Source of the DNA: Actinomycetota bacterium | Lineage (GTDB): Bacteria > Armatimonadota > SYMT01 | DNA: 54,465 nucleotides | Assembly (NCBI GenBank): GCA_005798285.1 | Contig: SYKE01000199.1 | Location: 1-54,465 of the forward strand | Direction of reading: 5' to 3' | Shown: positions 1 to 50,347 of the stretch, piece by piece | How positions within the stretch are numbered: position 1 is the first letter of the stretch | Layout: each line of letters starts with the position of its first letter | The notes under the pieces: generated by a model | Database searches by the model: none | Seen by the model: only the letters and a program-made list of their open reading frames with translations | What the model was told of the DNA's origin: nothing | Made by a program: the position numbers and the translations under genes

Positions 1-383
1 AGGCGTTCGCCGAGCGGCTGCACCTCGAGGCCCGGCGTGATTGGGGCTACGGCGTCAACGAAGCGCTGAACCACGACGAATTGCTTCGGGAAGCGTACCG
101 GGGAATTCGCCCAGCCGCCGGCTATCCGGCCAGTCCGGATCACACGGAAAAGTGGACTCTGTTCAGCCTGCTCGGCGCGGAGCAGGCGGCTGGAATGAGC
201 CTGACCGAGCACCTGGCCATGCTGCCCGCCGCATCCGTCTCCGGACTTTACTTCTCGCATCCCGAATCGCGCTACTTCGCCGTCGGCCGGATCGGCCGCG
301 ATCAACTGGCGGACTACGCAAAGCGAAAGTCGATGACGATGGACGAGATGGAGCGCTGGCTGTCGCCGAATCTGGACGAGTGA
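1..383 (+). CDS. metH: Cobalamin-dependent methionine synthase, C-terminal fragment (5' end outside the window)
   Basis: The frame-3 ORF is open from the window edge to TGA at 381-383. The translation ([17 protein letters not shown]...[24 protein letters not shown]...[25 protein letters not shown]) matches the conserved AdoMet-binding reactivation domain at the MetH C-terminus. Confidence 0.9.
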
Positions 384-386
384 TCC

Positions 387-409
387 CCGCCCCGGGATCC
401 CCGGGGCGG
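387..409 (+). terminator. GC-rich hairpin just after the metH stop
   Basis: ccgccccggg (387-396) pairs perfectly with cccggggcgg (400-409) around a 3-nt loop. It starts 4 nt after the stop. No clear T-run follows. Confidence 0.4.
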
Positions 410-568
410 CTCATAGAATTCACAAGAACGGTTAAAGAAGCGAAAGCAGGGAAGGGGAGCGGCTGCTTCCAATGAAACCCTGTGTCCTTCCGGGCGTCTT
501 ACCCGGCAGCGGCTTTTGCGTCGTCCGGCCCCACCTCTCCCCGATCCTGCTGTTCCGGACCAAACCCT

Positions 569-1762
569 ATGGCAATCCTGAATCGTCGGTTGTGTCTTCA
601 AACTCTCGCCGCGGGCGCTTTTCCCGGAGCGGCGTCTGCGCTTGACTGGTCGCAGTGGCGCGGACCTGCCCGCAACGGCATTTCCTCGGAGACGGGTTGG
701 AAGGCTGCCTGGGGCGCCGGCGGGCCGCCGAAGCTCTGGTCGGCTCAGGTGGGCGAGGGGTGGTCGGCTCCGGCGGTCGCGGGCAATCGCCTCTACACCA
801 TGGGCAACCAGGGCAATCAGGACACGGTTTATTGCCTGGACGCCGATACGGGTCGGGTGGTGTGGAAGCAATCCTACCCCTGCTCTGCGGGGGATTACGG
901 CGGTCCCCGATCGAGCCCGGTTCTGGAGGGCTGCCGCGTTTACACTCTATCGCGCGAGGGGTTCGCCGGCTGCCTGGATGCCGCGGGTGGGCGAGTGCTC
1001 TGGTCGCGTCATTTGCAGCGGGAAGCCAGGGCCGAAATACCGCGGTGGGGTTTCGCCGGTTCACCGCTGGTGCTGGGCAACCAGGTGCTCTACAACGTCG
1101 GCACGGCAGGCATTTCCCTGGCGAAGGCGAACGGCGAGGTACAGTGGATCTCCGGTCCGCGGGCTGCGGGCTACGCCTCGCCCGTGCCCTTTACGGCCGC
1201 CGGTAAGAGCGGCGTGGCGCTCTTCGTGGCGTTCGGCATCGTCGCGATCGAGCCCGCCACCGGGAAGCCGCTCTGGCAGCATCCCTGGGAAACGTCCTAC
1301 GACGTGAACGCCGCGGATCCTGTTTTCAGCGGGGACAGCGTGTTCATCACCTCGGGCTACAATCGAGGCGGAGCCCTTCTGCGACTGTCCGGCGGACGAC
1401 CGCAGGTGGTGTGGGAGAATAAGAACATCCGATCGCACTTCGCGAGTCCCGTTCTCCTGGGCGAAGGGATCTACGGCAACGACGACGGTCGTCTCACCTG
1501 TTTGAATGTGAAGAGCGGCAACCGCTCCTGGGAGATGCGAGGCATCGGCAAGGGCGGTTTGATGGCGGCGGGCGGCAAACTGCTGGTGCTCACGGAGCGC
1601 GGAGAGCTGGTGGCCGCAGAAGCGAGAACCGACCGCTATGTCGAACTGGCCCGGGGTCAGGTGCTTCGAGGAACCTGCTGGACCCATCCCGTACTGGCAA
1701 ACGGCCGCGTCTACTGCCGAAGCCATGAGGGTGAACTGGTCTGCTTGAACGTGAAGGGATAG
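569..1762 (+). CDS. Exported PQQ-like (BamB-type) beta-propeller repeat protein
   Basis: ATG at 569 gives MAILNRRLCLQTLAAGAFPGAASA, a signal peptide with a possible twin-arginine motif. DWSQWRGPARNGIS follows, then repeated propeller blades (LYTMGNQG..VYCLDADTGRVVW, VYTLSREGFAGCLDAAGGRVLW, VYCRSHEGELVCL). The ORF track start at 482 adds an implausible leader. Confidence 0.8.
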   Translation: MAILNRRLCLQTLAAGAFPGAASALDWSQWRGPARNGISSETGWKAAWGAGGPPKLWSAQVGEGWSAPAVAGNRLYTMGNQGNQDTVYCLDADTGRVVWKQSYPCSAGDYGGPRSSPVLEGCRVYTLSREGFAGCLDAAGGRVLWSRHLQREARAEIPRWGFAGSPLVLGNQVLYNVGTAGISLAKANGEVQWISGPRAAGYASPVPFTAAGKSGVALFVAFGIVAIEPATGKPLWQHPWETSYDVNAADPVFSGDSVFITSGYNRGGALLRLSGGRPQVVWENKNIRSHFASPVLLGEGIYGNDDGRLTCLNVKSGNRSWEMRGIGKGGLMAAGGKLLVLTERGELVAAEARTDRYVELARGQVLRGTCWTHPVLANGRVYCRSHEGELVCLNVKG

Positions 1763-1877
1763 CCAGGGCCCGGCGAACCGGGCGGAGATCCCTTTCGGTT
1801 TATCTGTCGAGTTGAGGCCGGATTGCAGCGATCATCTCCGATCTGCTGAACCCGTGCGATAGGGAAGGATTGAAAGC

Positions 1878-4202
1878 ATGCGTGGAAGCCTGATCCTGGG
1901 CCTGGCCGGCGCCTTGTTGGCGACCGCCGGCGTGGCGGCCCCGGTGCAGCGCGCCAAATCGGCGGCGGCCAGGCCGGCGGCAAAAGCAGCGGCCGTTACC
2001 GGATGGTTGAGTTGGCGAGGGCCCGACCAGACCGGCGTCTCCCACGAGACCGGACTGGTGGATACCTGGAAGCTCGGCGGAGCGAATGATCTCTGGAGTT
2101 ACAAGCTGGCCAGTGGGGGGACCCCTGTGCTCGCGAACGGGAAACTGTTCGTGCTGGGCTACGAAGGCGAGGGACCGAACCTGCAGGAAGTCTTCGTCTG
2201 CCTGGATGCGAATACCGGCAAGAAGCTCTGGGAGCGCCGCTACAACGACTACCTCAGCGACGTCGTTTACGATCGCTACGCCATTGGTTACCCCGCCGTC
2301 GATCCGGCCACCGGCAACGTCATCGTACTCACCGCCGCCGGCTACTTCTCCTGCTACACCCCCGCCGGGAAGCTCCTCTGGGAACATCCCATGATGGAAG
2401 AGTTCGGGAAGCTGACGTTCCCGAATGGTCGCACCGGGGGCCCGATCGTAGACGGAAATCTGGTGATTGTCCGCGGCATCACGTCCAACTGGGGAGGTGA
2501 GGGGCCGGCATCCGATCGCTTCTACGCCTTCGACACCGCCAGCGGCAAGCTCGTCTGGTCGTCCACTCCGGGCGGCCCTCCCAAGGACAACTCCTTCGCA
2601 AGACCGTTTCTCGGATGGCGCAATGGCAAGCGCGTCTTTTACACCGGCACCGGCGATGGCCAGGTGTCGTGCGTGAATGCCCGCACCGGAGAGCCGATCT
2701 TCCGGTTCCCGCTCTCCGCGGGCGGCATCAACTCCTCCGTGGTGCTCTACAAGAACCTCGCCATCGCCATCCACAACGACGAGAACCTGGATACCTCGGA
2801 AATCGGCCGAATGGTTGCGGTGAAGGTGGACACGGAGCCCAAGGCGCCGGTCGCCGGAGTTCCCGGCGCGCCGGAGATGCCCGCCACGGCGGAAGCCTGG
2901 CGCAACGAGCTGGGCACTGTCTCGAGTTCGCCGCTCCTCGTGGGCAACCGCATCTATCAGGCGAGCCACACCGGACAGCTCTGCTGCGTCGATGCGGACA
3001 CCGGAAAAATCCTCTGGCGCCACAAGCTGGCTCCGGATCAGCTCCATGCCTCGCCGCTCTACGCCGACGGCAAGATCTACATCCCGATGCAGAACGGCCT
3101 GTTCTACATTCTCAAGCCGGGCGAGACCGACTGCAAGGAACTGTGCAAGGTTCAACTTGCGGGCCGTTGTCTCGGACAGCCCATCGTGTGGGGCGGCAAG
3201 TTCTATGTCACCTCCACCGAGCGGATTTACTGCTTTGGCAACAAGGCGGGCGGCAAGCCGGCCGTCTGGCCGAAGGAGCCTGCTATGAAGCCGGGCGAAC
3301 CGGTGGCGCTCCAGATCGTCCCCGCCGAGGTGCTGCTTCGACCGGGTTCGAAGGCCACCTTCGAGATCCGTGGGATCGACGCCAACGGCCTGGTGACCGG
3401 CACCTATCCCGCCAATCAGGCGGCGTGGGCGAAGTACATCCCGCCGACCGCCCGGGTTCGCGCGGAGATGAGCGGATCGTTCAACGCGGCGGGTGAACTC
3501 GTCGCCGATGCGGCAATCAAGCCGTCGGCCGGCGCCTTCCAGGCCACCATCGGCAACTTGAAAGGCACCATCCGGGGCCGCGTGCTCCCCGATCTTCCCT
3601 TCAAAGAAGATTTCGAGGGCTACAACATCTCGGAAACACACGCCACCGAAGCCGATACCAAATTCGCCTACCCACCGCTGCCCTGGATCGGCGCCCGCTT
3701 CAAGTTTGAAGTTCGCGAGCACCAGGGGACCAAGGTTCTGGCGAAGACCCTCGACAACATCTTCTTCCAGCGAGCCACGGTGTTCTTCGGTCGACCGGAA
3801 AGCTCCAACTACACCGTCGAAGCCGATGTGATGTCCGACGGGAACCGCCGCACCATGTCTACGGTCGGACTCATCAATCAGCGCTACCTGATTTCGATGG
3901 TCGGCAACGCCCAGACGCTTCAGGTGACGTCGAACGAAGAACGGATCAAGGAAGGCGTGCCGTTCAAGTGGGAAACGAAGACCTGGTACCGGCTGAAGAC
4001 TCGCGTGGACGTTGCTGCAGACGGCTCCGGTGTGGTGCGGGCCAAGGCGTGGAAGCGTGGCGAGCCTGAACCCGCCGCGTGGAATCTGGAAGTCAAACAC
4101 CGCCAGGCCCACACGATGGGGTCCCCCGGCTTGTTCGGCTTCTCGCCGCAGAGCCTCTTCCGCGTGTATGTCGACAATCTGGCGGTGACGCCGAACTCCT
4201 GA
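1878..4202 (+). CDS. Exported PQQ-like beta-propeller protein with an Ig-like module and a C-terminal lectin/DUF1080-like module
   Basis: ATG at 1878 is preceded by AAGGA (1865-1869). Signal peptide MRGSLILGLAGALLATAGVAA. WLSWRGPDQTGVSHETG plus propeller blades (FVCLDANTGKKLW, VSCVNARTGEPIF, LCCVDADTGKILW). An Ig-like stretch (LQIVPAEVLLRPGSKATFEIRGIDANG) follows, then a C-terminal beta-sandwich-like tail ending FRVYVDNLAVTPN. Confidence 0.8.
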   Translation: MRGSLILGLAGALLATAGVAAPVQRAKSAAARPAAKAAAVTGWLSWRGPDQTGVSHETGLVDTWKLGGANDLWSYKLASGGTPVLANGKLFVLGYEGEGPNLQEVFVCLDANTGKKLWERRYNDYLSDVVYDRYAIGYPAVDPATGNVIVLTAAGYFSCYTPAGKLLWEHPMMEEFGKLTFPNGRTGGPIVDGNLVIVRGITSNWGGEGPASDRFYAFDTASGKLVWSSTPGGPPKDNSFARPFLGWRNGKRVFYTGTGDGQVSCVNARTGEPIFRFPLSAGGINSSVVLYKNLAIAIHNDENLDTSEIGRMVAVKVDTEPKAPVAGVPGAPEMPATAEAWRNELGTVSSSPLLVGNRIYQASHTGQLCCVDADTGKILWRHKLAPDQLHASPLYADGKIYIPMQNGLFYILKPGETDCKELCKVQLAGRCLGQPIVWGGKFYVTSTERIYCFGNKAGGKPAVWPKEPAMKPGEPVALQIVPAEVLLRPGSKATFEIRGIDANGLVTGTYPANQAAWAKYIPPTARVRAEMSGSFNAAGELVADAAIKPSAGAFQATIGNLKGTIRGRVLPDLPFKEDFEGYNISETHATEADTKFAYPPLPWIGARFKFEVREHQGTKVLAKTLDNIFFQRATVFFGRPESSNYTVEADVMSDGNRRTMSTVGLINQRYLISMVGNAQTLQVTSNEERIKEGVPFKWETKTWYRLKTRVDVAADGSGVVRAKAWKRGEPEPAAWNLEVKHRQAHTMGSPGLFGFSPQSLFRVYVDNLAVTPNS

Positions 4203-4278
4203 CACAGGCGCTCTCTCGAGCGTGGAATCAACTGAACGGCCGCGAGTCCGATTGCAGCCGGGCAGGATGGGGATCACT

Positions 4279-5823
4279 ATGAATCGAATGCGTTTTACCC
4301 GGTTGCTGGGACTGCTCGCGGTGGGTCTCACCCCCGTTGTGGCCGGCGCTGCCGACTGGCCGATGTGGGGCCTCAACTACTCGCGGAATATGGTGTCGGA
4401 TGAAACCGGCATTCTCTCAACCTGGGACCCGGGCAAGTTCAAGGGCAACACGGAAGAGATCGACGAGGCGACCACCAAGAATGTGAAGTGGGTGGTCAAG
4501 CTCGGATCGCAAACCTACGGGAATGTTGCCGTGAGCGGCGGCAAGGTCTTCGTGGGAACCAACAACGAGACCCCGCGAAACCCCGCCATTAACGGCGACC
4601 GCGGCGTGCTGATGTGCTTCGATGAGAAGACCGGCAAGTTCCTGTGGCAGCTCGCCGCGCCGAAACTCGGCACCGGCAAAGTCAGCGACTGGGAGTTCCT
4701 CGGGATCTGCTCCTCTCCCGCCGTGGAGGGTGACCGGGTCTACATCGTCAGCAATCGCTGTGAAGTGCTCTGTCTGGACGTGAACGGGCTTGCCAACGGA
4801 AACGACGGCGCCTACAAAGACGAAGCCAAGTATTCCACCGCGGTGATGAACCCGCCCCACAAGCTGGGCCCCACCGACGCCGACATCATCTGGCGCTTCG
4901 ACATGCGCGAAGAGCTGGGGGTGTTCCCGCACAACATCACCAACTGCGGCCCGCTGATCATCGGCGACCGCCTCGTGGTGACCACCTCCAACGGGGTGGA
5001 CTGGACCCACACCAACATCCCCAATCCCAAGGCCCCCGCCCTGGCGATGCTGAACAAGAACACCGGCGAATTGCTGGGTGAAGAAGCTTCGGGCGTGTCG
5101 AAGGGCACCCTCCATGCCAACTGGAGCTCTCCCACCGGCGCCAAGGTGGGCGGCAAGGACCTGATCCTCTTCGGCGGCGGAGACGGCGTGCTCTACGGCT
5201 ACGACGTGAACCCCGTGAAGGCGGACGACGGCGTGAACTTGCTGAAGGAACTCTTCCGCTACGACTGCAACCCGCCGAAGTATCGCGCGAAGGACGGCAA
5301 GCCGCTTAAGTACGCGACCTACGACGGCCCGAGCGAAGTCATCGCCACGCCGGTCTTTTACAAGGATCGCGTGTTTGTCTCCGTCGGTCAGGACCCGGAG
5401 CATGGCGAAGGTCTGGGCCAGCTTTCCTGCGTGGATCCGTCGAAGACCGGCGATCTGGCGAAGGGCGGCGTGATCTGGACCTACGACAAGATCCACCGCT
5501 CGCTCAGCACTCCCGCCATCAAGGATGACGTGATTTACGTCGGCGACTTCAGCGGCTTCGTCCACTGCATCGACGCGAACACCGGCAAGCCCTATTGGGT
5601 GTTCGATACCAAGAGCCACATCTGGGGCTCGGCGCTGGTTGTCGACGGCAAGGTCTACGTCGGCACCGAGGACGGTGACGTCGTCATCCTCGCGGCGAGC
5701 AAGACCCTCAAGGAACTGGGCCGCGTCGACATGCGCGCGCCGGTCTATTCCTCCCCCGTGGTTGCGAATGGAACGCTCTACATCTCCACTCCGACCCACC
5801 TCTACGCGCTCGGGACCAAGTAG
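4279..5823 (+). CDS. Exported PQQ-like beta-propeller repeat protein
   Basis: ATG at 4279 gives MNRMRFTRLLGLLAVGLTPVVAGAADWPMWG, a signal peptide followed by the family N-terminal motif. Blades include LMCFDEKTGKFLW, VLCLDVNG and VHCIDANTGKPYW. Confidence 0.8.
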   Translation: MNRMRFTRLLGLLAVGLTPVVAGAADWPMWGLNYSRNMVSDETGILSTWDPGKFKGNTEEIDEATTKNVKWVVKLGSQTYGNVAVSGGKVFVGTNNETPRNPAINGDRGVLMCFDEKTGKFLWQLAAPKLGTGKVSDWEFLGICSSPAVEGDRVYIVSNRCEVLCLDVNGLANGNDGAYKDEAKYSTAVMNPPHKLGPTDADIIWRFDMREELGVFPHNITNCGPLIIGDRLVVTTSNGVDWTHTNIPNPKAPALAMLNKNTGELLGEEASGVSKGTLHANWSSPTGAKVGGKDLILFGGGDGVLYGYDVNPVKADDGVNLLKELFRYDCNPPKYRAKDGKPLKYATYDGPSEVIATPVFYKDRVFVSVGQDPEHGEGLGQLSCVDPSKTGDLAKGGVIWTYDKIHRSLSTPAIKDDVIYVGDFSGFVHCIDANTGKPYWVFDTKSHIWGSALVVDGKVYVGTEDGDVVILAASKTLKELGRVDMRAPVYSSPVVANGTLYISTPTHLYALGTK

Positions 5824-5839
5824 TCGCGGCTCGGCCCAA

Positions 5840-5877
5840 CCGCCGGCTTCGGAGCATCGAAGCCGGCGGCCCCTTTT
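5840..5877 (+). terminator. Intrinsic-terminator-like hairpin with a short T-run
   Basis: ccgccggcttcg (5840-5851) pairs perfectly with cgaagccggcgg (5858-5869) around a 6-nt loop. The hairpin is followed by ccccTTTT (T-run 5874-5877). It starts 17 nt after the stop of the preceding propeller gene. Confidence 0.55.
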
Positions 5878-5886
5878 CCACACACC

Positions 5887-6972
5887 ATGAGTTCATCCAA
5901 CCGTCTCAATCTGACCCCCGCTCAGGCCCAGGAGGCCCTCGACGCCCACGTTCGAGAAATCGTTCAGTGGCACTTCTCGCCCGAAACGGGCAGCCCGTTC
6001 TGGTTGGACTGGGTAAAGCAAGCCGGTTGGGATCCCACCACGGAGATTCAGGGCTACGCGGACCTCGTCAAGTTCCCCCACTTTCAGGACGAGTGGCTCC
6101 GAGATGAGTTGAACGAGCGCTGGGTGCCGCGCGCCTATGTGGGTCGCCCGTACTACGTGTTCGAAACGGGCGGCACCACCGGGATGCCGAAGCAGCGCAT
6201 CGGCTGGGAAGACCAGTTCCGGGATTACGAGGAGTTCTCCGAGACCCTCGACGACGAACACTTCCCCCGGGGCGGAAACTGGCTGATGCTGGGACCCACC
6301 GGTCCCCGACGGCTCCGACTGTGCATCGAACATCTGGCTCACGTGCGGGGCGGGGTCTGCTACCACGTCGATCTGGACCCCCGGTGGGTCAAGCGGCTGA
6401 TCGCCGACAAAGAGTTCGCCATGGCGAACAAGTACAAGGATCATGCCGTGGAGCAGGGCGCCACTCTGCTGAAGAACCGCAAGATCAGTTGCCTCTTCAC
6501 CACCCCCAAGCTGTTGGAAGCGCTCGACGAGAAGATCAACGTGCCGGATGCCGGCATCAAGGGCGTGTTCTGCGGGGGCACTCAGATGACGCCGCAAAAC
6601 GTACGGTTCCTCGTCGAAGAAGTGCTCGACAACCGCGCGCAGTTCGTCCCGACCTACGGCAATACGCTGATGGGTTTGGCCTGCAGCCGGCCGCTGAGTC
6701 CCGACGACAACTGGAGCATCACCTACTACGCGCCGCAGCCGCGCGCCGTCTTGCGGGTGGTCGATCCGGACAATACCACCGAGACCGTCGGCTACGGAGA
6801 CTGGGGCCGGGTGGAGCTCACCACTTTGACGAAGGAGTTCTTCATGCCGCGGTTCCTGGAGCGCGATGAGGCGGTTCGTCGGGAGCCGTGGGGTCCGTAC
6901 GGCTGGGATGGCGTGGGCGAAGTCCGTCCGTTCGGAGCCATGCAGTCGACCACCATCGAAGGCGTGTATTAG
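5887..6972 (+). CDS. Adenylate-forming enzyme, LuxE (acyl-protein synthetase) / PaaK / F390-synthetase-like
   Basis: 361 aa with no signal peptide. YYVFETGGTTGMPKQRIG resembles the ANL-superfamily phosphate-binding loop (SSGTTGxPK). VFCGGTQMTPQNV and TYGNT resemble later ANL core motifs. The size is closer to LuxE (about 370 aa) than to full-length acyl-CoA ligases. The subfamily assignment is tentative. Confidence 0.65.
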   Translation: MSSSNRLNLTPAQAQEALDAHVREIVQWHFSPETGSPFWLDWVKQAGWDPTTEIQGYADLVKFPHFQDEWLRDELNERWVPRAYVGRPYYVFETGGTTGMPKQRIGWEDQFRDYEEFSETLDDEHFPRGGNWLMLGPTGPRRLRLCIEHLAHVRGGVCYHVDLDPRWVKRLIADKEFAMANKYKDHAVEQGATLLKNRKISCLFTTPKLLEALDEKINVPDAGIKGVFCGGTQMTPQNVRFLVEEVLDNRAQFVPTYGNTLMGLACSRPLSPDDNWSITYYAPQPRAVLRVVDPDNTTETVGYGDWGRVELTTLTKEFFMPRFLERDEAVRREPWGPYGWDGVGEVRPFGAMQSTTIEGVY

Positions 6973-7015
6973 TCGATCCGCTCGGCGAAGAGCTGGTTCG
7001 CAAGGAGAAAGATCC

Positions 7016-8254
7016 GTGCAGAAACGTTCAGGATACGCACTTTCGGCAGCGCTGCTGCTGGGCCTGCTCCGGCCCGTTGGGGCTCAGGAGTGGACCCGTT
7101 TCCGCGGACCGAACGGCTCCGGCATCAGCCAGGCCACCTCGGTTCCCGTGCAGTGGGCCGAAACCGAAGTGAACTGGAAGCTGCAGCTTCCCGGCGCCGG
7201 GCATTCCTGTCCGGTGGTGTGGAAGGATCGGATCTTTCTCACCAGCGCTGATGTGACCGCACAGAAGCGCTATGTCTTGTGCATCGGAACCAACGGCAAG
7301 GAGATCTGGCGGAAGACGCTCGATTTCCCCGTTCACAAGAAGCACAACTTCAACAGCTTCGCCTCCGCCACGCCGGCGGTGGATGCCGATGCGGTCTACG
7401 TGATGTTCAACACGCTGGACTCCTACGACATCATGGCGTTCGACCACAGTGGCAAGGAGCTCTGGAAGAAGGACCTGGGCGGATACAACGCGCAGCACTC
7501 CGGCGGCAGCTCCCCCATCGTGCTCGGGGAATCGCTGATCGTGGCCAAGGAGCCGGATGAAGGCGAGAGCTCGCTGGTGGCACTGAACCGCAAGACCGGC
7601 GCCGTCAAGTGGCAGAAGTCGCGCCCCGGGAAGAACGCGGTCTACGCCACACCCCTCGTCTACCAGGCGAAGGGCGGCAAGCCGGAGTTGATCTTCCAGA
7701 GCACTCTCTTCGGTTTCACCAGTCTGGATCCCGCCACCGGTGAGCTGAACTGGGAGCAGCAGGTTTTCAAGAATCGGGCGGTATCGTCGCCCATTCTGGC
7801 CGGCGAGCTCATCGTGGGCGCCGCGGGCCAGGGCGGCGGGGCCCGGGAACTGGCCGCCGTTCGTCCCGGTTCTCGTGGCGCCGGGGTAGAACCCAAGGTG
7901 GAGTACCACCTTCAGCGTGGGCCGTCGTATGTGCCCACCCCGCTCGCCTACAAGGACTGGATCTTCTGTTGGGGAGACGGCGGGATCGTCACCTGTCTGA
8001 ACGCCTCCACCGGAGAACAGGTGTGGCAGGAGCGAGTGGGCGGGGACTTTTTCGGCTCGCCGATCTGTGTGAACGGCAAGCTGTACGCCATCTCTACGCG
8101 CGGTGAAGTCGTGTGTATCGAGGCGGGGCCCGAGTTCAAAGTGCTGGGTCGGAGCCCTCTGGGTGAGGCCAGCCATTCCACGCCGTCGGTCGCCGATGGC
8201 GTGATGTATCTGCGCACGGAGGGTCATCTCTTCTCCGTGGGCGGGAAGAAGTAA
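7016..8254 (+). CDS. Exported PQQ-like beta-propeller repeat protein
   Basis: GTG at 7016 lies 8 nt after AAGGAG (7002-7007). It gives VQKRSGYALSAALLLGLLRPVGAQEWTRFRGPNGSGIS, a signal peptide plus the family motif. Blades include LVALNRKTGAVKW and VTCLNASTGEQVW. The ORF track start at 6866 would overlap the upstream gene by 107 nt. Confidence 0.8.
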   Translation: MQKRSGYALSAALLLGLLRPVGAQEWTRFRGPNGSGISQATSVPVQWAETEVNWKLQLPGAGHSCPVVWKDRIFLTSADVTAQKRYVLCIGTNGKEIWRKTLDFPVHKKHNFNSFASATPAVDADAVYVMFNTLDSYDIMAFDHSGKELWKKDLGGYNAQHSGGSSPIVLGESLIVAKEPDEGESSLVALNRKTGAVKWQKSRPGKNAVYATPLVYQAKGGKPELIFQSTLFGFTSLDPATGELNWEQQVFKNRAVSSPILAGELIVGAAGQGGGARELAAVRPGSRGAGVEPKVEYHLQRGPSYVPTPLAYKDWIFCWGDGGIVTCLNASTGEQVWQERVGGDFFGSPICVNGKLYAISTRGEVVCIEAGPEFKVLGRSPLGEASHSTPSVADGVMYLRTEGHLFSVGGKK

Positions 8255-9684
8255 TGACGTTGCCGCATATCCCCGTCCTTCGACGGGGCCAGGTGTACGA
8301 AAGCCTGGAAAAGGTCGAGATCAAGAGCGTTCGGACCGGTGAATCGGTGGTGGAAATCAGCCACGCGAACGCCGGCATCATCCGTCGAGACATGCGCCGC
8401 ATCGGCGATGCCCGAGCGGCCCTCCGCAAGTTCTCATGCGCCGAACTGGTGGCGATCGCGAAGAAGGCGGGCGAGCATTTCCTGCACTCCACCCTTCCGT
8501 TGGGCGATCAGACCCAATCGCCTCAGGACTACATCGAGCAGCTCAGCGCCACCAGCGGCCTGCCCCACATCCTGATCCGTCGAAACATGGGGAAGATCTA
8601 TCAGGTCTTCACCGAGATGGAGACGATCCTTCGCGGGCTCACCCGGGGCCTGGATCTCACGGTGATCGATCGTGGCAGCGGCGAGCAGCAGGGCGTGCCC
8701 GTGAGCTACTACGCGGCCACCGAGGCGCTCGGGGTGGTGCTCCCCAGCAACTCCCCGGGTGTGAACTCGCTCTGGATGCCGGCGCTCGTCATGAAGATCC
8801 CGGTGGTGTTGAAGCCGGGCCGCGAAGAGCCGTGGACGCCGTTCCGGATCATCCAGTCCTTCATCGCTGCCGGCTGTCCCGCCGACGCCTTCAGCTTCTA
8901 TCCCACCGACCATGAGGGCAGCGGCGCGGTGATGGATACCTGCGGTCGCGCGCTTATCTTCGGCGACGAGGCCACGGTCCAGCGTTATGCGGGCAATCCG
9001 GGCGTCTCGGTGCATGGCCCGGGCCGCAGCAAGGTGCTCATCGGGAACGATGAAGCGGAGAACTGGCCGCAGTATGTGGACCTGATCGCCCAATCCATCG
9101 CGGAGAACGGCGGAAGGTCGTGCGTCAATGCCTCGTGCGTCATCACTCCCCGCCATGCCGACGCGCTGGCTGACGCGCTGGCTCGACGCCTGGCCGAAAT
9201 CCGCCCCGTTCCCGCAACCGACGAATCGGCACAACTGGCGGGCTTCGCCAACCCCAAGATGGCTCAGTTCATCGACCAGGCCATCACTCAGGGACTGCAG
9301 ACCGCCGGCGCCGAGGACATCACGGCGGAGTACCGGACCGATCCGCGCATTCAGGAACTCGACGGCAGCACCTACCTGTTGCCCACGATCGTTCGCTGCA
9401 ACAACTTCAGCCATCCTCTGGCGAACCGGGAGTTCCTCTTCCCCTACGCCAGCGTGCTGGAGATCCCGCAGGACAAGATGTTGGAGCAGATCGGACCGTC
9501 CCTGGTCGTCACCGGCATCACCCACGATCCCGGCTTCTCCGACGCGCTTGTGGGCTCTCCGAACATCGATCGGTTGAACCTGGGACCCCTGCCGACCACG
9601 CGGGTCCAGTGGGACCAACCGCACGAAGGGAACCTCTTCGAGTTCCTCTATCGACGTCGGGCGATCCAGCGCGCGGGGAACTAA
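8254..9684 (+). CDS. Aldehyde-dehydrogenase-superfamily reductase, LuxC (acyl-CoA reductase)-like
   Basis: ATG at 8254 overlaps the upstream TAA (TAATG, 8252-8256). Motifs: GVVLPSNSPG...VVLKPGREEPWTP, HGPGRSK in place of the canonical ALDH ELGG, candidate catalytic Cys in ENGGRSCVNAS, and C-terminal PHEGNLFEFLY. From memory these resemble LuxC features (FGPKKS, AHDG..PLQRL). No signal peptide. Confidence 0.7.
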   Translation: MTLPHIPVLRRGQVYESLEKVEIKSVRTGESVVEISHANAGIIRRDMRRIGDARAALRKFSCAELVAIAKKAGEHFLHSTLPLGDQTQSPQDYIEQLSATSGLPHILIRRNMGKIYQVFTEMETILRGLTRGLDLTVIDRGSGEQQGVPVSYYAATEALGVVLPSNSPGVNSLWMPALVMKIPVVLKPGREEPWTPFRIIQSFIAAGCPADAFSFYPTDHEGSGAVMDTCGRALIFGDEATVQRYAGNPGVSVHGPGRSKVLIGNDEAENWPQYVDLIAQSIAENGGRSCVNASCVITPRHADALADALARRLAEIRPVPATDESAQLAGFANPKMAQFIDQAITQGLQTAGAEDITAEYRTDPRIQELDGSTYLLPTIVRCNNFSHPLANREFLFPYASVLEIPQDKMLEQIGPSLVVTGITHDPGFSDALVGSPNIDRLNLGPLPTTRVQWDQPHEGNLFEFLYRRRAIQRAGN

Positions 9685-9687
9685 ACC

Positions 9688-10863
9688 ATGCCCGGGGGGA
9701 TCCTCGGCTTCGACCTCCAGCCCCGGACGCGCATCGTCTACGGGCTGGGGGTATTGGAGCGGCTGGGTGAGTTGACGCGGGAGCTGCCGGCGCGGCGCGT
9801 GCTGGTGGTAACCGACCCCGGCATCGCGGCCGTGGGCCATCTGGAGCGGGCCCTGGCGATCCTGAAGGCGGCGGGCGTCACCGCCGCCGTCTTCGATCGG
9901 GTCCGCGAAAATCCCACCACCGTGGATGCCGCCGCCTGTCTGGAAGCGGCCCGGGGGGAAGGGGTCGAGGCGTTCATCGGACTCGGCGGCGGCAGCAGCA
10001 TGGACACCGCCAAGGGCGGCAACTTCCTGCTGACCAACGGTGGACGCATGCAGGACTACTGGGGCCACGGGAAAGCCTCCCGACCCTTGCTGCCGCTCAT
10101 CGCCGTGCCGACCACTTCGGGCACCGGCAGCGAGTGTCAGTCGTACGCCCTGATTGCCGATGAGGCGACCCACCAGAAGATGGCCTGCGGCGACCCCAAG
10201 GCGGCGGCACGGGTCGCGCTGCTCGACCCGGGGCTCACGCTGTCTCAGCCGCGCGGCGTGACCGCCTGCACCGGCATCGATGCCATCGCTCACGCCGTTG
10301 AGACGGCCGTCACGCGCCGTCGGAACGAATTCTCGCTTCTGTACTCCCGCGAGGCGTTTCGGCTCACCAGCGGCAGCTTCACGCGCGTCCTGGGAGAGCC
10401 TTCACATCTGGAGGCGCGCGCCGCCATGCACCTCGGCGCGAGCTTTGCCGGTATCGCCATCGAGCAGAGCATGCTCGGCGCGGCTCACTCCGCCGCGAAT
10501 CCCCTCACGGCGCGCTTCAATATCGTCCACGGGCAGGCGGTGGGAATGATGCTCCCGCATGTGGTGCGGTTCAACGCCGAGGATCCCACGGCGGCGGCGG
10601 CCTACGCCGATCTCGCTGTTTCGGCGGGCCTGGCTCCACACGGCGGCGACGCATGGCAGGCGTCGCACGCGCTGGCGGACCACCTCCAATCGCTTCTGCG
10701 GGCCGCGGGGTGGCCGGACTCGCTTGCCGTCCTGGGCGTCACCGAGGACAGCGTCCCCGCGCTCGCCACGGGGGCTGCGGGGCAGTGGACCGCGAACTTC
10801 AACCCACGCAGCGTCTCGGCCGCCGACTTTCAGCGGCTCTATCGCTCTGCGCTGGGGGTGTGA
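9688..10863 (+). CDS. Iron-containing (group III) alcohol dehydrogenase
   Basis: ATG lies 3 nt after the upstream stop. GLGGGSSMDTAKG, AVPTTSGTGSE and the metal-ligand region GIDAIAHAVE...HLGASFAG...LGAAHSAANPL are typical Fe-ADH signatures. Confidence 0.9.
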   Translation: MPGGILGFDLQPRTRIVYGLGVLERLGELTRELPARRVLVVTDPGIAAVGHLERALAILKAAGVTAAVFDRVRENPTTVDAAACLEAARGEGVEAFIGLGGGSSMDTAKGGNFLLTNGGRMQDYWGHGKASRPLLPLIAVPTTSGTGSECQSYALIADEATHQKMACGDPKAAARVALLDPGLTLSQPRGVTACTGIDAIAHAVETAVTRRRNEFSLLYSREAFRLTSGSFTRVLGEPSHLEARAAMHLGASFAGIAIEQSMLGAAHSAANPLTARFNIVHGQAVGMMLPHVVRFNAEDPTAAAAYADLAVSAGLAPHGGDAWQASHALADHLQSLLRAAGWPDSLAVLGVTEDSVPALATGAAGQWTANFNPRSVSAADFQRLYRSALGV

Positions 10864-10868
10864 AGAAA

Positions 10869-10898
10869 CGACCCCGGCTCCATCCGGAACCGGGGTCG
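10869..10898. terminator. Hairpin between convergent genes (Fe-ADH and glyQ)
   Basis: cgaccccgg (10869-10877) pairs with ccggggtcg (10890-10898) around a 12-nt loop. There is no T-run, so this rests on position and structure only. Confidence 0.35.
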
Positions 10899-10945
10899 AC
10901 GCCGACGTCCGATCAGCTCGGGCCCGGAGTCCGGGCCCCTCGCGT

Positions 10946-11830
10946 TCAGGCGGCTTCTTCGGTCTTCGGCAGGAGCGGGTAACCCGATTCCTCACGCTGT
11001 TTCAGGTAGGCCTGCGCCACTCGACGACAGATGTTCCTCACCCGGTCGATGTAGCTGGCCCGCTCCGTTACCGAGATGGCGCCCCGAGCATCCAGGATGT
11101 TGAAGGCGTGGCTGCACTTGAGCGCAAAGTCGTAGCAGGGGTAAACGAGCCCCTCCTTCAGAATTCGGTGCGACTCCGCCTCATACAGGTCGAACAGTCG
11201 GAAGTGGAGATCCGTGTCAGCCTTGTCGAGATTGTAGATGGAGTTCTCGATCTCCGCGGTTTTGTCGAGCTGCCCGTAGGTGAGACCGTGGTCCCATTCC
11301 AGTTCCCAGAAGCTGGCGACGTTCTGGAGCAGACAGGCGAGGCGCTCAGGTCCGTAGGTGATCTCCACCGTCACCGGCCGGCACTCGAAGCCGCCGCTCT
11401 GCTGGAAGAAGGTGAACTGGGTGATCTCGTTGCCGTCGAGTTCCACCTGCCAACCGACGCCCGCGGCGCCGAGCATGGGGCTCTCCCAGTCATCCTCCGT
11501 GAATTTGATGTCGTGTATGGCGGGGTCGATGCCAAGAGATCGCAGGCTGTCCAGATACAGGTCCACGATGTTGTCGGGCGACGGCTTCAAGATGACCTGG
11601 TACTGGTAGTAGTGCTGCACGCGCATGGGGTTGCGGGCGTAGCGGCTGTCGGCCGGGCGGCGGCTCGGCTGAACGTAGGCCGTGTTGAACGGCTCCGGCC
11701 CGAGGCTTCTGAAAAACGTCGCCGGGTGCATCGTGCCGGCGCCCATTTCCACGTCCCACGGCTGCAGGATGACGCAGCCCTGCGCGGCCCAGAAGCGTTC
11801 GAGATTGGAAAGGAGTTGTTGAAAGGTCAT
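10946..11830 (-). CDS. glyQ: Glycine--tRNA ligase alpha subunit
   Basis: [47 protein letters not shown]...[33 protein letters not shown] is the highly conserved GlyQ sequence. The length is 294 aa. Confidence 0.95.
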
Positions 11831-12618
11831 CGTCTTCTACCGCGGACCAGCCAGACATAGCCCAGTCGGCCGGTCAATGTCGTCACATCAAACCAGGGAT
11901 ACAGCAATCGCGCCAGTTCCTCGCGGCGAAACCGGTGAAAGTAAAGCTCGCCGCTGTGAAAACCCTCTTGCCGAAGCCACGGCAGAGCCCGGTAGGCCGT
12001 CAGAGCGAGCCTGCCGCCCGGTCGCAGCACCCGAGCCATCTCGGCGATCACCCGGCGCCGCAGGGCCTCGGTGGGAACGTGCTCGAGGAGCTGCGCCGAC
12101 ACCACGTGAGTTGCCCAGCCGTCCGCCACGGGGATTTGCGTTGCATCGGACCGGACCAGTTGTACCGCGTCCCGCCCAGGAGCGGACAGTTTTGCCTGAA
12201 GGCGATTCAGCGACGCCAGGCTGTGATCCACGGCGAGCACGCGAGCGCCGAGAGCTGCGAGGCGGAGAGTGACTCGGCCCGTGCCGCATCCGACTTCCGC
12301 CACCCGGACTTCCGTCCCGCGAAGGCCGCTCAGCAGCAGGGGGAGTTCGAAGCGGGAGAAGAGCCGTAGACCCAGCATGCCGTCGTAGCGAACGGAGTCG
12401 TCGTCTCGAAATGCCTGTTCCCGGCGGACCGTCTCCGCGGCATCCGGCTCCCAACCGTCGGGGGGTGGGAGATCCGGGATGCCGTTGGACAGCGGAGAGA
12501 TCCAACGACAAGCGGTGCAGAGGAGTGTCGGAGAAGCCCGTCCGGCTCCGGATTCCAATCCGGGCCGGAACTCCAGGGGCGCTCGGTCACGAGGACAGCG
12601 CAGGTCTTCAATCCCCAT
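11827..12618 (-). CDS. Class I SAM-dependent methyltransferase with an N-terminal Trm112-like zinc ribbon
   Basis: The N-terminus [12 protein letters not shown]...[17 protein letters not shown] looks like a Trm112-type ribbon. SAM motif I is [28 protein letters not shown]. The stop overlaps the glyQ start (ATGA, 11827-11830). Confidence 0.8.
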
Positions 12619-18020: not shown

Positions 18021-18663
18021 TGTCTTGAGCCTTTTGCGGAGCGACGACTCGCATCGCTCCGTCGGTTGAGTTCTGGGCGCCGGCAACATACGTCTTGAGA
18101 TGCTGACGGAGCCCCTGGAGAGCCCGGTGAAGCAAACTCTTCACCGCGCCCTCGGTTCGATCGAGTGCCTGGGCGATTTCCCGGATCGACTGATCCCCAA
18201 GAAACCTGAGCGTCACGGCGCGCGCCTGGTCGGGCGGAAGCTGATTGATCGCCAGCCGCACCATCTCCTGCACTTCTCCGCGTTCCACCAGTTCCTGTGG
18301 GTTGAGACCCTCGGCGGGCAGATACTCCAGGAAGCTGTCGACATCTTCGGCGGCCTGGGCATCTAAAGAGAGCATACCCCCCGCGGGCAGCCGGCGTACG
18401 TGATCGATGATCAGGTTGCTGGTGATCTGATGCAGCCAGGGGTAGAGAGTGGGGGCTCGGCGAAACTGGTAGGAATCGATCCGCTGCAGTGCGCGGCGGA
18501 ACGTCTCCGAGGCCACATCGGCCGCGTCTTCGGCATTGCCCAGGCGAAGGTAGGCCAGCCGGTACACACGCGGGTAATAGCGCCGGTGAAGCATCTCAAA
18601 GGCGCGCACGTCGCCCGTCTTCACCCGCTCCACCAACGCCTTATCGCTCTCGTCGAACGGCAT
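17980..18663 (-). CDS. ECF-type RNA polymerase sigma factor
   Basis: ATG at 18663 gives MPFDESDKALVERVKTGDVRAFEMLHRRYYPRVYRLAYLRLGNAEDAADVASETF...YPWLHQITSNLIIDHVRR (region 2). Region 4 helix-turn-helix: LPPDQARAVTLRFLGDQSIREIAQALDRTEGAVKSLLHRAL. Confidence 0.8.
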   Translation of the reverse strand: MPFDESDKALVERVKTGDVRAFEMLHRRYYPRVYRLAYLRLGNAEDAADVASETFRRALQRIDSYQFRRAPTLYPWLHQITSNLIIDHVRRLPAGGMLSLDAQAAEDVDSFLEYLPAEGLNPQELVERGEVQEMVRLAINQLPPDQARAVTLRFLGDQSIREIAQALDRTEGAVKSLLHRALQGLRQHLKTYVAGAQNSTDGAMRVVAPQKAQDNAPEHIHLHRGGA

Positions 18664-18882
18664 TAAACGGTGGGCCTCGCTCTCATGACCCGGCGGAATC
18701 GTTCCGACGAAGCCACTTCCGCTCCGCCATCGACCCAACCTCGTATTATAGGCCCAGCCGCGTTTGCCCTGCCGGGATCCCGGCGCCTGAACCTGTTCGG
18801 CCGCCAGCAACACTGAAACGCCTCCCGCCGGCCCACACCTGCAGACCGGTTCAGGTTGCTTAACGGTGGATCCGGAAGAAGG

Positions 18883-33078: not shown

Positions 33079-33867
33079 TCAGGGGCTGAGCTGCTGGCCG
33101 CCGGTGACGTTGAGGGCCTGCCCCGTCATATAGCTGCTCTCGTCGGAGGCCAGGAAGACCACCACGTTGGCCACGTCTTCGTAGGTGCAGCCGCGGCCGA
33201 GGGGAACCTGGTCGACGTACTTCTTGCGGACCTCTTCCACCGTCAGGCCCCACTTGCGGGCGTACTGCTCGTAGAGGCTCTGGGTCCACAGGGTGCCGTC
33301 GAGGAGGTTGCCGGGGCAGACGGCGTTGACGCGGACCCCATACGGCGCCAGGTCGAGCGCCAGGCTCTGGGTGAGACCGATGCCGCCGAACTTGCTGGCG
33401 GCGTAGGCAGAGTTGCGGAAGCTGCCCTTTTTGCCGCTCTTCGAGTTGATCTGGATGATCGTTCCTCGCTTCTGAGGCGCCATCACCCGGGCCGCCTCTC
33501 GGGCGCAGAGGAAGTAGCCCGTGAGGTTCACGTCGAGGACGAAGCGCCAGTCGTCGAGCGGGAACTCGGTGATGTCGTGCGCCTTCAACACACCGGCATT
33601 GGCCACCAGAATGTCGAGCCCGCCATGGCGCTCGACGGCGGCGGCGACCATCGTCTGCACGTCGGCTTCCTGGGTGACGTTGGCGCGCACCGATGCCGCC
33701 TCGCCTCCAGCCTCGCGGATGGCGGCGGCGGCGCGCTCGGCGGCCTCGGCGTTCAGATCGGCGATCATGACTCGGGCGCCTTCCGCGGCCAGGCGGCCGG
33801 CCAGCGATTCGCCCAATCCCTGCCCGGCGCCGGTAATCAGCGCACTGCGGCCCTCTAACCGGCGCAT
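33079..33867 (-). CDS. Short-chain dehydrogenase/reductase, sorbitol-6-phosphate 2-dehydrogenase (SrlD/GutD)-like
   Basis: ATG at 33867 gives MRRLEGRSALITGAGQGLGE (TGxxxGxG). NSKSGKKGSFRNSAYAASKFGGIGLTQSLALDLAPYGVRVNAVCPGNLL......QSL..QYA.K.G........Y.DQVPLGRGC...DV......LASDESSYMTGQALNVTGGQ closely parallels SrlD as recalled from memory. Confidence 0.85.
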   Translation of the reverse strand: MRRLEGRSALITGAGQGLGESLAGRLAAEGARVMIADLNAEAAERAAAAIREAGGEAASVRANVTQEADVQTMVAAAVERHGGLDILVANAGVLKAHDITEFPLDDWRFVLDVNLTGYFLCAREAARVMAPQKRGTIIQINSKSGKKGSFRNSAYAASKFGGIGLTQSLALDLAPYGVRVNAVCPGNLLDGTLWTQSLYEQYARKWGLTVEEVRKKYVDQVPLGRGCTYEDVANVVVFLASDESSYMTGQALNVTGGQQLSP

Positions 33868-40561: not shown

Positions 40562-40698
40562 GAAGTCTCGTTCAAACCAGCCCGCCCGGATGGTGCCGGG
40601 GCTTGCGTGAAAGCGCACTCTCGGAGTGTGCAACGCATCACTCCGGGAGTGCCGGCTCAGTCGCCATACTCTGTGTGGGCAGCGGTTTCCATCTGCCT

Positions 40699-40737
40699 TC
40701 CCGGGATGGTTGCGGAGGATCATCCCGGGATTTTTTT
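40699..40737 (+). terminator. Hairpin + T7 (module 1 of a tandem pair)
   Basis: tcccggga (40699-40706) pairs with tcccggga (40723-40730). The loop is tggttgcggaggatca. The hairpin is followed by ttttttt (40731-40737). Confidence 0.6.
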
Positions 40738-40901
40738 GTTTCCGGCGACGTCGAAGGCTGAAGCCCACCGACGCTCGACCACCTGGCTGAACGCTATTTT
40801 TGTTGAGATCGCGGCGCACCCCGGAAGGTGTGGTCTTTTTCATAAAGAACCGTCGCCGCGACGCCATTCTTTATACCAGGCAGCGGGGCGACCTTCTGCC
40901 T

Positions 40902-50255: not shown

Positions 50256-50347
50256 GTTCCCACTCCGAGCTTGGAACGATTTAGCGATTGAGACACCGAC
50301 CCGAAGTCGGGGTTGCACCCACCTGCCGCATCTCAACCAGTCAGGAA

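Follow-up and report, generated by a model that had tools for sequence, protein, structure and literature searches.

What could tie a set of exported beta-propellers to three cytoplasmic enzymes that, taken together, look able to turn a carboxylic acid into an alcohol? This question is raised by a gene cluster at positions 482–10863 of a 54,465-nucleotide stretch of DNA (GenBank assembly GCA_005798285.1, contig SYKE01000199.1, positions 1–54,465 of the forward strand), deposited as Actinomycetota bacterium and placed by GTDB in the Armatimonadota (SYMT01); this whole stretch is referred to below as the window. The cluster consists of seven co-directional open reading frames (ORFs) on the plus strand, all of which were confirmed in our ORF reading of the window and which encode, in this order, three propellers (P1, P2 and P3), an adenylate-forming ligase, a further propeller (P5), a protein of the aldehyde dehydrogenase (ALDH) fold and an iron-containing alcohol dehydrogenase (Fe-ADH). 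An earlier sequence-only reading had interpreted the three enzymes as a LuxE/LuxC-like fatty-acid-reducing module with a possible role in envelope lipid remodelling. The analysis presented here points to different relatives and a different type of substrate, and we regard it as an even call that the cluster is one copy of a conserved, hitherto undescribed operon of Armatimonadota, Verrucomicrobiota and Planctomycetota, in which exported propellers are linked to a cytoplasmic two-component carboxylic-acid reductase and an alcohol dehydrogenase.

The ligase and the reductase are relatives of EhpF and EhpG

The ligase gene (5887–6972, plus strand) encodes a cytoplasmic protein of 361 aa that consists of the N-terminal domain of the ANL superfamily only and lacks the C-terminal domain. 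A phmmer search against the PDB retrieved EhpF (3HGU/3L2K; E = 3e-46), with residues 20–361 aligning to residues 22–366 and the alignment reaching the C-terminal residue, and a BLASTP comparison with the EhpF encoded on a Pantoea agglomerans plasmid gave 32% identity (E = 5e-50). EhpF is reportedly an ANL adenylating enzyme that is likewise devoid of the C-terminal domain, and together with EhpG it is said to have been proposed to turn phenazine-1,6-dicarboxylate into 6-formylphenazine-1-carboxylate via an adenylate. The P-loop of the ligase, FETGGTTGMPKQR, is invariant. Searching 1.84 billion representative proteins yielded 254 relatives of the ligase at E ≤ 1e-30, and because the full-length relatives are nearly all about 355–380 aa long, the truncated architecture is typical of the EhpF-like family. 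The same search returned two fusion proteins, in which an EhpF-like domain is joined to a class-III aminotransferase (P0412, 824 aa) or to a zinc-dependent alcohol dehydrogenase (Zn-ADH; P0455, 725 aa). These fusions lend independent support to an acid-to-aldehyde role of the family, the aldehyde presumably being carried on to an amine or an alcohol in other organisms. A direct fusion of EhpF and EhpG, for which we looked among the representative-protein relatives, was not found there, and P0412 shows no similarity to the 476-aa protein described next.

The ALDH-fold protein of 476 aa (8254–9684, plus strand) is homologous to the EhpG of Pantoea, with 27% identity over 408 residues (E = 1e-41). 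When it was used as the query of a tblastn search against plasmid sequences, the best matches were all ALDH-family genes, and in the two plasmid records inspected (Pantoea agglomerans and Streptomyces goshikiensis) an ALDH gene directly follows the EhpF-type AMP-binding gene. The catalytic Cys290 is invariant across the EhpG-like group. At the position of the general-base Glu of ALDHs (ELGGK) a His is found in the protein studied here (VHGPGRSK), a Gln in EhpG and an Arg in the Streptomyces protein. As the Cys is kept and the general-base Glu replaced, formation and reduction of a thioacyl-Cys fits the EhpG-like group better than hydrolysis, and we infer that the 476-aa protein partners the ligase as a reductase that forms a thioester and depends on NAD(P)H. 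As an observation in its own right, the EhpF-type and EhpG-type genes on the Streptomyces goshikiensis plasmid (NZ_CP115937.1, locus L085, 4703–10788) share a one-base stop/start overlap and lie beside genes for DAHP synthase and pabB, a context that suggests aminobenzoate-type aromatic acid reduction within a secondary-metabolite cluster.

The third enzyme (9688–10863, plus strand; 391 aa) is a standard Fe-ADH of group III, matching both domain models (PF00465/PF25137) over its full length with 160 bits for Fe-ADH (cut-off 31) and 114 bits for ADH_Fe_C (cut-off 27). None of the NCBIfam equivalog cut-offs was reached, the best match being ErcA with 260 bits against a cut-off of 550.

Several more familiar assignments were tried for the first two enzymes and rejected. 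In hmmscan searches of Pfam at E ≤ 10, the 361-aa protein had no match to LuxE (PF04443) and the 476-aa protein none to LuxC (PF05893); the only models returned were AMP-binding for the former, with a weak score of 31.6 bits, and Aldedh for the latter, with 49.3 bits at positions 79–379. Membership of the PaaK/F390 synthetase group is contradicted by a score of 24 bits for F390_ftsA (TIGR03335), set against a cut-off of 459 and covering the N-terminal 105 residues only, and by the lack of a match to AMP-binding_C_2; the 'PaaK-like' names found in JGI are automatic labels. As for ordinary ALDHs (PF00171), every NCBIfam ALDH equivalog scored at most 31 bits against cut-offs of 448–850, and the general-base Glu is missing. 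The Lux membership put forward in the sequence-only reading thus gives way to homology with the EhpF/EhpG pair of phenazine (D-alanylgriseoluteic acid) biosynthesis, and the outcome that this reading had named as damaging to its own case, namely placement of the two proteins among PaaK and ordinary ALDHs, was not what we found. Its proposed reaction sequence, from the acid through acyl-AMP and an enzyme-bound thioester to the aldehyde and the alcohol, agrees with the homologies and the reductase residues and may well apply, and luxAB and luxD are indeed absent, the seven genes being those for four propellers, the ligase, the ALDH-fold protein and the Fe-ADH. The fatty-acid substrate and the envelope-lipid role could not be retained, since EhpF has reportedly been proposed to act on an aromatic dicarboxylate and a solute symporter gene lies directly upstream of the ligase gene in most of the related loci discussed below.

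The propellers form a set of distant, exported paralogues

All four propellers were assigned to Pfam PQQ_2 with scores of 76–127 bits, and their mutual identity of 23–31% marks them as distant paralogues. Their N-termini begin with a positively charged segment, after which come a hydrophobic stretch and then a (D/E)W..(W/F)(R)G motif. The Kyte–Doolittle maximum over 12 aa lies between 1.3 and 2.3 for the propellers, compared with 0.10 for the ligase, 1.18 (at residue 32) for the EhpG-like protein and 1.15 (at residue 16) for the Fe-ADH; the hydrophobic peaks of the latter two proteins come without the architecture of a signal peptide. P1 has the weakest maximum of the four (1.32) and, being so close to 1.18 and 1.15, is not set apart from these two enzymes by its score alone, so that its assignment as an exported protein rests mainly on the sequence pattern. 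With this qualification for P1, the division into exported propellers and enzymes without signal peptides, as drawn in the sequence-only reading, is borne out.

P1 (569–1762, plus strand; 397 aa) is a propeller of the BamB/PQQ_2 type with a Pfam PQQ_2 score of 127 bits, its start being taken from the gene calls on L086 and L087, two of the public contigs that are near-identical to the window (related loci are cited here by L numbers). Its N-terminus, MAILNRRLCLQTLAAGAFPGAASA, resembles a signal peptide and is possibly a twin-arginine translocation (Tat) signal. Orthologues of P1 with 42–57% identity are located upstream of P2 in L002, L005, L007, L009, L010, L037, L042, L079, L089, L090 and L091. 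P2 (1878–4202, plus strand; 774 aa) combines a PQQ_2-type propeller (103 bits) with a C-terminal part of 313 aa that had no sequence match in Pfam or the PDB. For this part (residues 462–774) an AlphaFold2 model with a mean predicted local distance difference test (pLDDT) score of 87 shows an immunoglobulin (Ig)-like beta-sandwich followed by a jelly roll of the concanavalin A (ConA)-like lectin/glucanase fold, and Foldseek matched it in the PDB to the lectin domain of galactocerebrosidase, the sialidase BT_1020, PL14/PL20 lyases, GH16 O-glycanases and legume/ERGIC-53 lectins (E between 6e-7 and 1e-3). The modelled fold thus agrees with the propeller-Ig-lectin description already given for P2 in the sequence-only reading.

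P3 (4279–5823, plus strand; 514 aa) was assigned to PQQ_2 and modelled by AlphaFold2 as an eight-bladed propeller with long inserts (pLDDT 83, predicted template modelling (TM) score 0.85). The best PDB matches in Foldseek were BamB (TM 0.53–0.57), designed 'Cake' propellers, tetrathionate hydrolase and YxaL, whereas quinoprotein alcohol dehydrogenases reached a TM score of only about 0.45–0.48. Across 32 orthologues with 65–76% identity, P3 has about 130 invariant columns, many of them polar, which is more than we would expect of a pure scaffold. Of the propellers, P3 also has the tightest linkage to the ligase gene, with an orthologue in 49 of the 65 loci that are informative in the sense given below. 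P5 (7016–8254, plus strand; 412 aa), the PQQ_2-type propeller (106 bits) encoded between the ligase and reductase genes, likewise starts with a signal-peptide-like N-terminus. On our best reading, P2 and P3 are the core propellers of the system and P1 and P5 accessory ones.

Two named functions were considered for the propellers and rejected. An identity as BamB is not in agreement with scores of 60–70 bits for TIGR03300 against a cut-off of 285 in all four proteins, nor with the absence of a lipobox Cys from their N-termini, and the fold alone is common. An identity as quinoprotein dehydrogenases is opposed by scores of at most 45 bits for TIGR03075 against a cut-off of 480 and by Pfam PQQ matches that span about 40 residues, i.e. 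a single repeat.

Gene order is conserved across phyla

Within the window, the ligase gene ends with TAG at 6970–6972 and is followed, after a gap of 43 nt, by the GTG start of P5 at 7016, 8 nt upstream of which a Shine-Dalgarno-like AAGGAG can be read in the sequence (7002–7007, plus strand). The P5 stop and the start of the EhpG-like gene share one nucleotide in TAATG (8252–8256), and the EhpG-like stop and the Fe-ADH start are separated by 3 nt (TAA-acc-ATG, 9682–9690); the remaining intergenic gaps of the cluster measure 115, 76 and 63 nt. Gene calls on the near-identical contigs L086–L088 gave products of 397, 774, 514, 361, 412, 476 and 391 aa and placed two starts differently from the ORF reading, at 569 rather than 482 for P1, the ORF of which is open from a GTG at 482, and at 4279 rather than 4222 for P3; we take the called positions as the most likely starts. 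The seven co-directional genes and all junctions reported in the sequence-only reading are therefore present.

Homologues of the ligase fall into more than 8000 clusters, a lower bound, and the best 120 homologues listed, which belong to Armatimonadota, Verrucomicrobiota and Planctomycetota, share 70–99% identity with it. When one genome per GTDB species was scanned, at least 598 matching stretches were returned. Gene neighbourhoods were compared in the 80 best of these loci together with two from metagenomes, and the synteny counts cover 81 loci. The sample is made up of the loci most similar to the query, so that all frequencies given here describe this subfamily only; a locus was counted as informative where it had enough flanking sequence on the relevant side. 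Ligase identity across the 80 genome loci, which represent three phyla, is 64–81%, and for the components overall it is 64–88% for the ligase and 46–76% for P2, P3, the reductase and the Fe-ADH.

Full-length orthologues of P2 (46–70% identity) and P3 (48–69%) lie immediately upstream of the ligase gene and in the same direction in 41 of 57 informative loci. Downstream, the flank of 39 of the 72 informative loci contains an EhpG-like gene, which in 29 of them is adjacent to the ligase gene (<400 nt), and in 29 of 64 informative loci the EhpG-like gene is succeeded by an Fe-ADH orthologue. Among the 46 loci that are informative on both sides, 23 carry P2, P3 and the reductase, 10 the propellers only, 4 the reductase only and 9 neither. 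A reciprocal test that started from three P3 orthologues recovered the whole cluster, the EhpF-like gene included, in two of the three contigs; the third, from an Armatimonas species, had the propellers and the SSF transporter but no ligase. As dozens of species-level genomes in several phyla show this arrangement, it is far beyond what chance would produce, and the tie between the cytoplasmic module and the exported propellers that had been read from the window alone is thereby strengthened.

The slot between P3 and the ligase gene usually holds a transporter: a symporter of the SSF family, accompanied by its DUF3311 partner, in 36 loci, and a non-homologous major facilitator superfamily (MFS) transporter in 13 loci (for example L020:8359–9897 and L022:8473–9960, and 11 further loci). 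The nearest named families are PutP, PanF and MctP for the SSF proteins and aromatic-acid/H+ symporters (the closest), MhpT, PcaK and sialate transporters for the MFS proteins; the closest named families of both types import carboxylates or zwitterions. The closest relatives of the cluster, L004, L005 and L007, have a transporter gene that the window is without, and a tblastn search found no SSF, MFS or further propeller gene elsewhere in the window. No lipid-metabolism gene and no exporter was found to be conserved in the neighbourhood of the related loci.

P5 is confined to a narrower circle. A P5-type propeller occupies the slot between ligase and reductase genes in L091 (59% identity to P5), L004 (37%), L090 (34%) and L009 (30%), all of them loci with a ligase 75–82% identical to that of the window and, where the contigs are named, labelled as Armatimonadota. 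The Verrucomicrobiota and Planctomycetota loci have no P5-type propeller, and their ligase and reductase genes abut or overlap. Of the gene order that the sequence-only reading had singled out for a neighbourhood search, the core thus recurs across phyla, whereas the exact succession of ligase, propeller and reductase was seen only in the window and its closest relatives.

Two further features of the related loci deserve mention. In six to seven Planctomycetota and Verrucomicrobiota loci (L002:13792–16933, also L016, L018, L062 and others), the Fe-ADH gene is followed by genes for a further PQQ_2-type propeller of about 390–410 aa, a radical SAM protein of about 446 aa that resembles HemN/HutW, and a conserved protein (about 187 aa) that has no family, a block that may represent an extension of the system which the window does not have. 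In L091, the cluster of which is otherwise syntenic, a DUF433/DUF5615 pair (18064–18755), probably a toxin-antitoxin system, separates the EhpG-like gene from the Fe-ADH gene as an insertion.

A predicted route from external substrate to alcohol, and its alternatives

On the reading that we favour, the exported propellers would bind, release or convert an external substrate, for which the Ig-like and lectin-like tail of P2 suggests a glycan or polymer. A carboxylate product would then be imported, in most relatives by the Na+/solute symporter with its DUF3311 partner or by the MFS transporter of the aromatic-acid/H+ type, as judged from gene position. Once in the cytoplasm, the carboxylate would be adenylated with ATP by the EhpF-like enzyme, an activity predicted from the homology described above, whereupon the EhpG-like protein would take the acyl group onto its conserved Cys and, if it works in the predicted direction, reduce the thioester with NAD(P)H to the aldehyde. 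Reduction of the aldehyde to the alcohol would finally fall to the Fe-ADH, a direction that its family membership allows us to propose. An aromatic or a sugar (uronic-type) acid is more likely to be the substrate than a fatty acid, because of the aromatic substrate proposed for EhpF, the aromatic-acid type of the MFS transporters and the lectin/uronate-lyase-like fold of P2, all of which are weak hints. We advance only tentatively, and with less confidence than the operon itself, a more far-reaching version: an undescribed multi-phylum pathway in which a dedicated extracytoplasmic assembly of several propellers, one of them bearing a lectin-like module, is obligatorily coupled to ATP-driven cytoplasmic acid reduction, serving either the reductive assimilation of polymer-released uronic or aromatic acids (to a neutral alcohol or sugar) or the formation of a novel organic cofactor of the aldehyde or alcohol type for propellers that are PQQ-like but 'empty'. 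If true, such propeller-coupled acid reduction or such a cofactor would constitute a new metabolic route and provide the first function for a very large family of unannotated propellers.

A number of points weigh against the favoured reading. Even the reaction of EhpF and EhpG is a proposal, and the activity ascribed to the present subfamily is taken over from them by homology; nor is it evident why a cell should spend ATP and two NAD(P)H on an imported acid. The import step itself is adopted from the relatives, as the window has no transporter gene. The propellers lack an identifiable catalytic motif, and the structures that they match best are those of the scaffold protein BamB and of designed propellers, while the lectin-fold matches of P2 are weak (TM about 0.4 at the E values given above). 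The linkage of the parts is incomplete as well: the synteny sample favours loci similar to the query, about a third of the informative loci have no adjacent reductase gene and some have the ligase alone, with unrelated genes (a LysR regulator, DUF2339 or a protein kinase) following the ligase where the reductase is missing. Furthermore, an Armatimonas sp. contig (L089, JAYVPL010000158.1, 4286–12514) carries four propellers, including P2 and P3 orthologues, together with DUF3311 and SSF genes and no adjacent ligase, reductase or Fe-ADH gene, and it follows that the propeller-transporter half can be encoded separately.

Among the alternatives, a biosynthetic direction is unlikely on the present evidence but has the most to be said for it. 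The ligase, the reductase and the Fe-ADH would here make a small aldehyde or alcohol (a cofactor, a signal or an envelope component) from an aromatic polycarboxylate or a similar acid, and this product would be delivered to the propellers, for example as a prosthetic group of 'empty' PQQ-like propellers. EhpF and EhpG, the sole relatives that have been studied, serve biosynthesis, and the substrate proposed for them is a tricyclic aromatic dicarboxylate; pyrroloquinoline quinone (PQQ), too, is tricyclic and aromatic, and a tricarboxylate. Repeats of the PQQ type occur in the propellers, the scores of which nevertheless stay far under the cut-offs of the quinoprotein families; P5 is translationally coupled to the reductase; the best NCBIfam match of the Fe-ADH, although far under the cut-off, is ErcA, a regulator-like alcohol dehydrogenase of the PQQ-dependent ethanol oxidation system; and a HemN-like radical SAM gene follows the cluster in six to seven loci. 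Such a direction is, however, difficult to reconcile with the absence of precursor-synthesis genes in or beside the cluster, the neighbours of which are metH and glyQ, with conserved transporters from families whose characterised members import rather than export solutes, and with the lack of a conserved exporter. Oxidative catabolism, in which the propellers, the Fe-ADH and the ALDH-fold protein would oxidise an alcohol via the aldehyde to an acyl-enzyme or acid that the EhpF-like enzyme then activates, we regard as rather improbable. In its favour, the reactions of Fe-ADHs and of ALDH-fold enzymes can be reversed or often run in the oxidative direction, the classical role of PQQ-type propellers is that of alcohol dehydrogenases, and the propellers here show weak matches to PQQ and TIGR03075; but the EhpG-like group is missing the general-base Glu needed for hydrolysis of the thioacyl-enzyme to the free acid, and the EhpF-like enzyme is missing the C-terminal domain of the thioester-forming half-reaction, which leaves its acyl-AMP without an obvious acceptor except the reductase Cys. 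The aminotransferase and Zn-ADH fusions fit aldehyde production, and in Foldseek the propellers are closer to the BamB type than to quinoprotein dehydrogenases.

For a Lux-type fatty-acid reductase, which would supply fatty aldehydes or alcohols for envelope lipid remodelling and have its lipid product handled by the propellers, the chances are slight: the enzyme logic of an activator consisting of the ANL N-domain only, an ALDH-fold Cys reductase and an alcohol dehydrogenase is equal, but neither the LuxE nor the LuxC Pfam model is matched, the cluster holds no LuxD-type acyltransferase and no luxAB, the closest characterised relative has been proposed to act on an aromatic dicarboxylate, symporters of carboxylate-importing families stand beside the ligase in the relatives, and no lipid-metabolism genes are conserved nearby. 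That the genes have no functional link at all, with propeller and enzyme genes adjacent by chance or hitch-hiking in one lineage, is the least credible of the alternatives and hardly to be believed. In some genomes the ligase does stand by itself or is accompanied only by the reductase (L001, L036, L067 and others), and the Armatimonas contig has propellers and SSF without a ligase; against these stand the 41 of 57 informative loci, from at least three phyla, in which P2 and P3 orthologues directly precede the ligase gene in the same direction, as well as the stop/start overlaps and very short gaps in the window.

Boundaries of the cluster and other genes of the window

The cluster is flanked by the 3' end of metH upstream and a convergent glyQ gene downstream. 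The ORF at 81–383 encodes the C-terminus of a B12-dependent methionine synthase, the neighbour in L086 having been called with Met_synt_B12, and a GC-rich palindrome (386–410) directly 3' of the metH stop codon (381–383) marks the upstream boundary. The downstream boundary is marked by a hairpin of 13 bp, 10 of them G-C pairs, at 10869–10898 between the convergent Fe-ADH and glyQ genes, the latter (10946–11830, minus strand) being identified from the ORF list and a gene call. This hairpin was the only signal above background in the terminator scan. A sigma-70 promoter scan gave no match, and an Rfam scan of positions 1–12000 at E ≤ 1 found no regulatory RNA.

Some genes farther away in the window are recorded here as observations in their own right. 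A 551-aa Zn-ADH-like ORF (33855–35510, minus strand) has its ADH_N (28–124) and ADH_zinc_N (354–459) domains split by about 230 residues, an unusually long distance, and this middle stretch could be an insertion or the result of an over-extended ORF. Directly downstream of it in window coordinates and on the same strand lies an ORF of 1070 aa (35510–38722, minus strand), for which no Pfam match was obtained at E ≤ 1e-5. Finally, genes for a BNR_2 (sialidase-like repeat) protein and for a protein with DUF1501 lie at 39473–40867 and 48903–50549, respectively, both on the minus strand; DUF1501 is a family common in Planctomycetota and Verrucomicrobiota.

Comparison with known systems

Literature searches on the biochemistry of EhpF/EhpG, on PQQ-like propellers in these phyla and on combinations of F390 synthetase, SSF and Fe-ADH revealed, within the literature that could be searched, no description of such a cluster, in agreement with the sequence-only reading, which knew of no described system of this kind, and the database names of the components are generic ('PaaK-like', 'BamB', 'PQQ-binding-like repeat protein'). 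Propellers of the PQQ_2/BamB-like kind abound in Planctomycetota, Verrucomicrobiota and Armatimonadota, and those of the cluster bear no more than generic database labels; the operon gives the P2 and P3 groups a fixed partner with predictable chemistry.

The nearest known counterpart is the EhpF/EhpG pair of the D-alanylgriseoluteic acid cluster of Pantoea agglomerans (EhpF structures 3HGU, 3HGV and 3L2K). The ligase aligns with EhpF end to end and both lack the ANL C-terminal domain, and the reductase shares with EhpG two motifs, GPGxSK and the C-terminal PH(E/D)G, as well as the invariant Cys. A hydroxymethyl group is what the product finally becomes in griseoluteic acid, corresponding to the same sequence of acid, aldehyde and alcohol. 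The Pantoea locus further encodes PhzA/B, D, E, F and G, whereas no Phz protein is present among the seven products or the neighbours metH and glyQ, the rest of the window not having been searched for phz genes. The subfamily described here is far more conserved (64–88%) and much larger, is chromosomal and situated between housekeeping genes, and is tied to exported propellers, an Fe-ADH and, in the relatives, a symporter instead of secondary-metabolite tailoring enzymes; in the lineage of the window, moreover, the two genes are parted by the single propeller gene P5. The EhpF/EhpG module, known solely from phenazine tailoring, thus extends beyond phenazine clusters to a subfamily that is much larger and highly conserved.

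In the LuxC/LuxE system, a stand-alone activator forms the acyl-AMP and an ALDH-fold Cys reductase makes the aldehyde with NADPH. The predicted working logic of the pair described here is similar, but there is no similarity to LuxE or LuxC, neither LuxD nor a luciferase is present, and a fatty-acid substrate is not indicated. With the type I carboxylic acid reductases (CARs) of adenylation-thiolation-reduction (A-T-R) architecture, such as Nocardia Car and fungal Lys2, the system would share the ATP- and NADPH-dependent conversion of an acid into an aldehyde via an adenylate and a thioester. It differs from them in that none of the seven proteins matches PP-binding or NAD_binding_4, so that neither a peptidyl carrier protein (PCP) domain nor a reductase domain of the short-chain dehydrogenase/reductase (SDR) type is present; no phosphopantetheinyl transferase would be required, and the reaction would be divided between two polypeptides with the thioester formed on the Cys of the ALDH-fold protein. 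Carrier-free two-component acid reductases of this kind would be of interest for biocatalysis. BamB, YxaL and tetrathionate hydrolase share their fold with the propellers, of which P3 exceeds BamB by about 150 aa and contains inserts and P2 adds the Ig-like and lectin-like domains. Overall, the enzymology of the cluster is of the recognisable EhpF/EhpG type, and it is the association with exported propellers and a symporter that is both undescribed and widely conserved.

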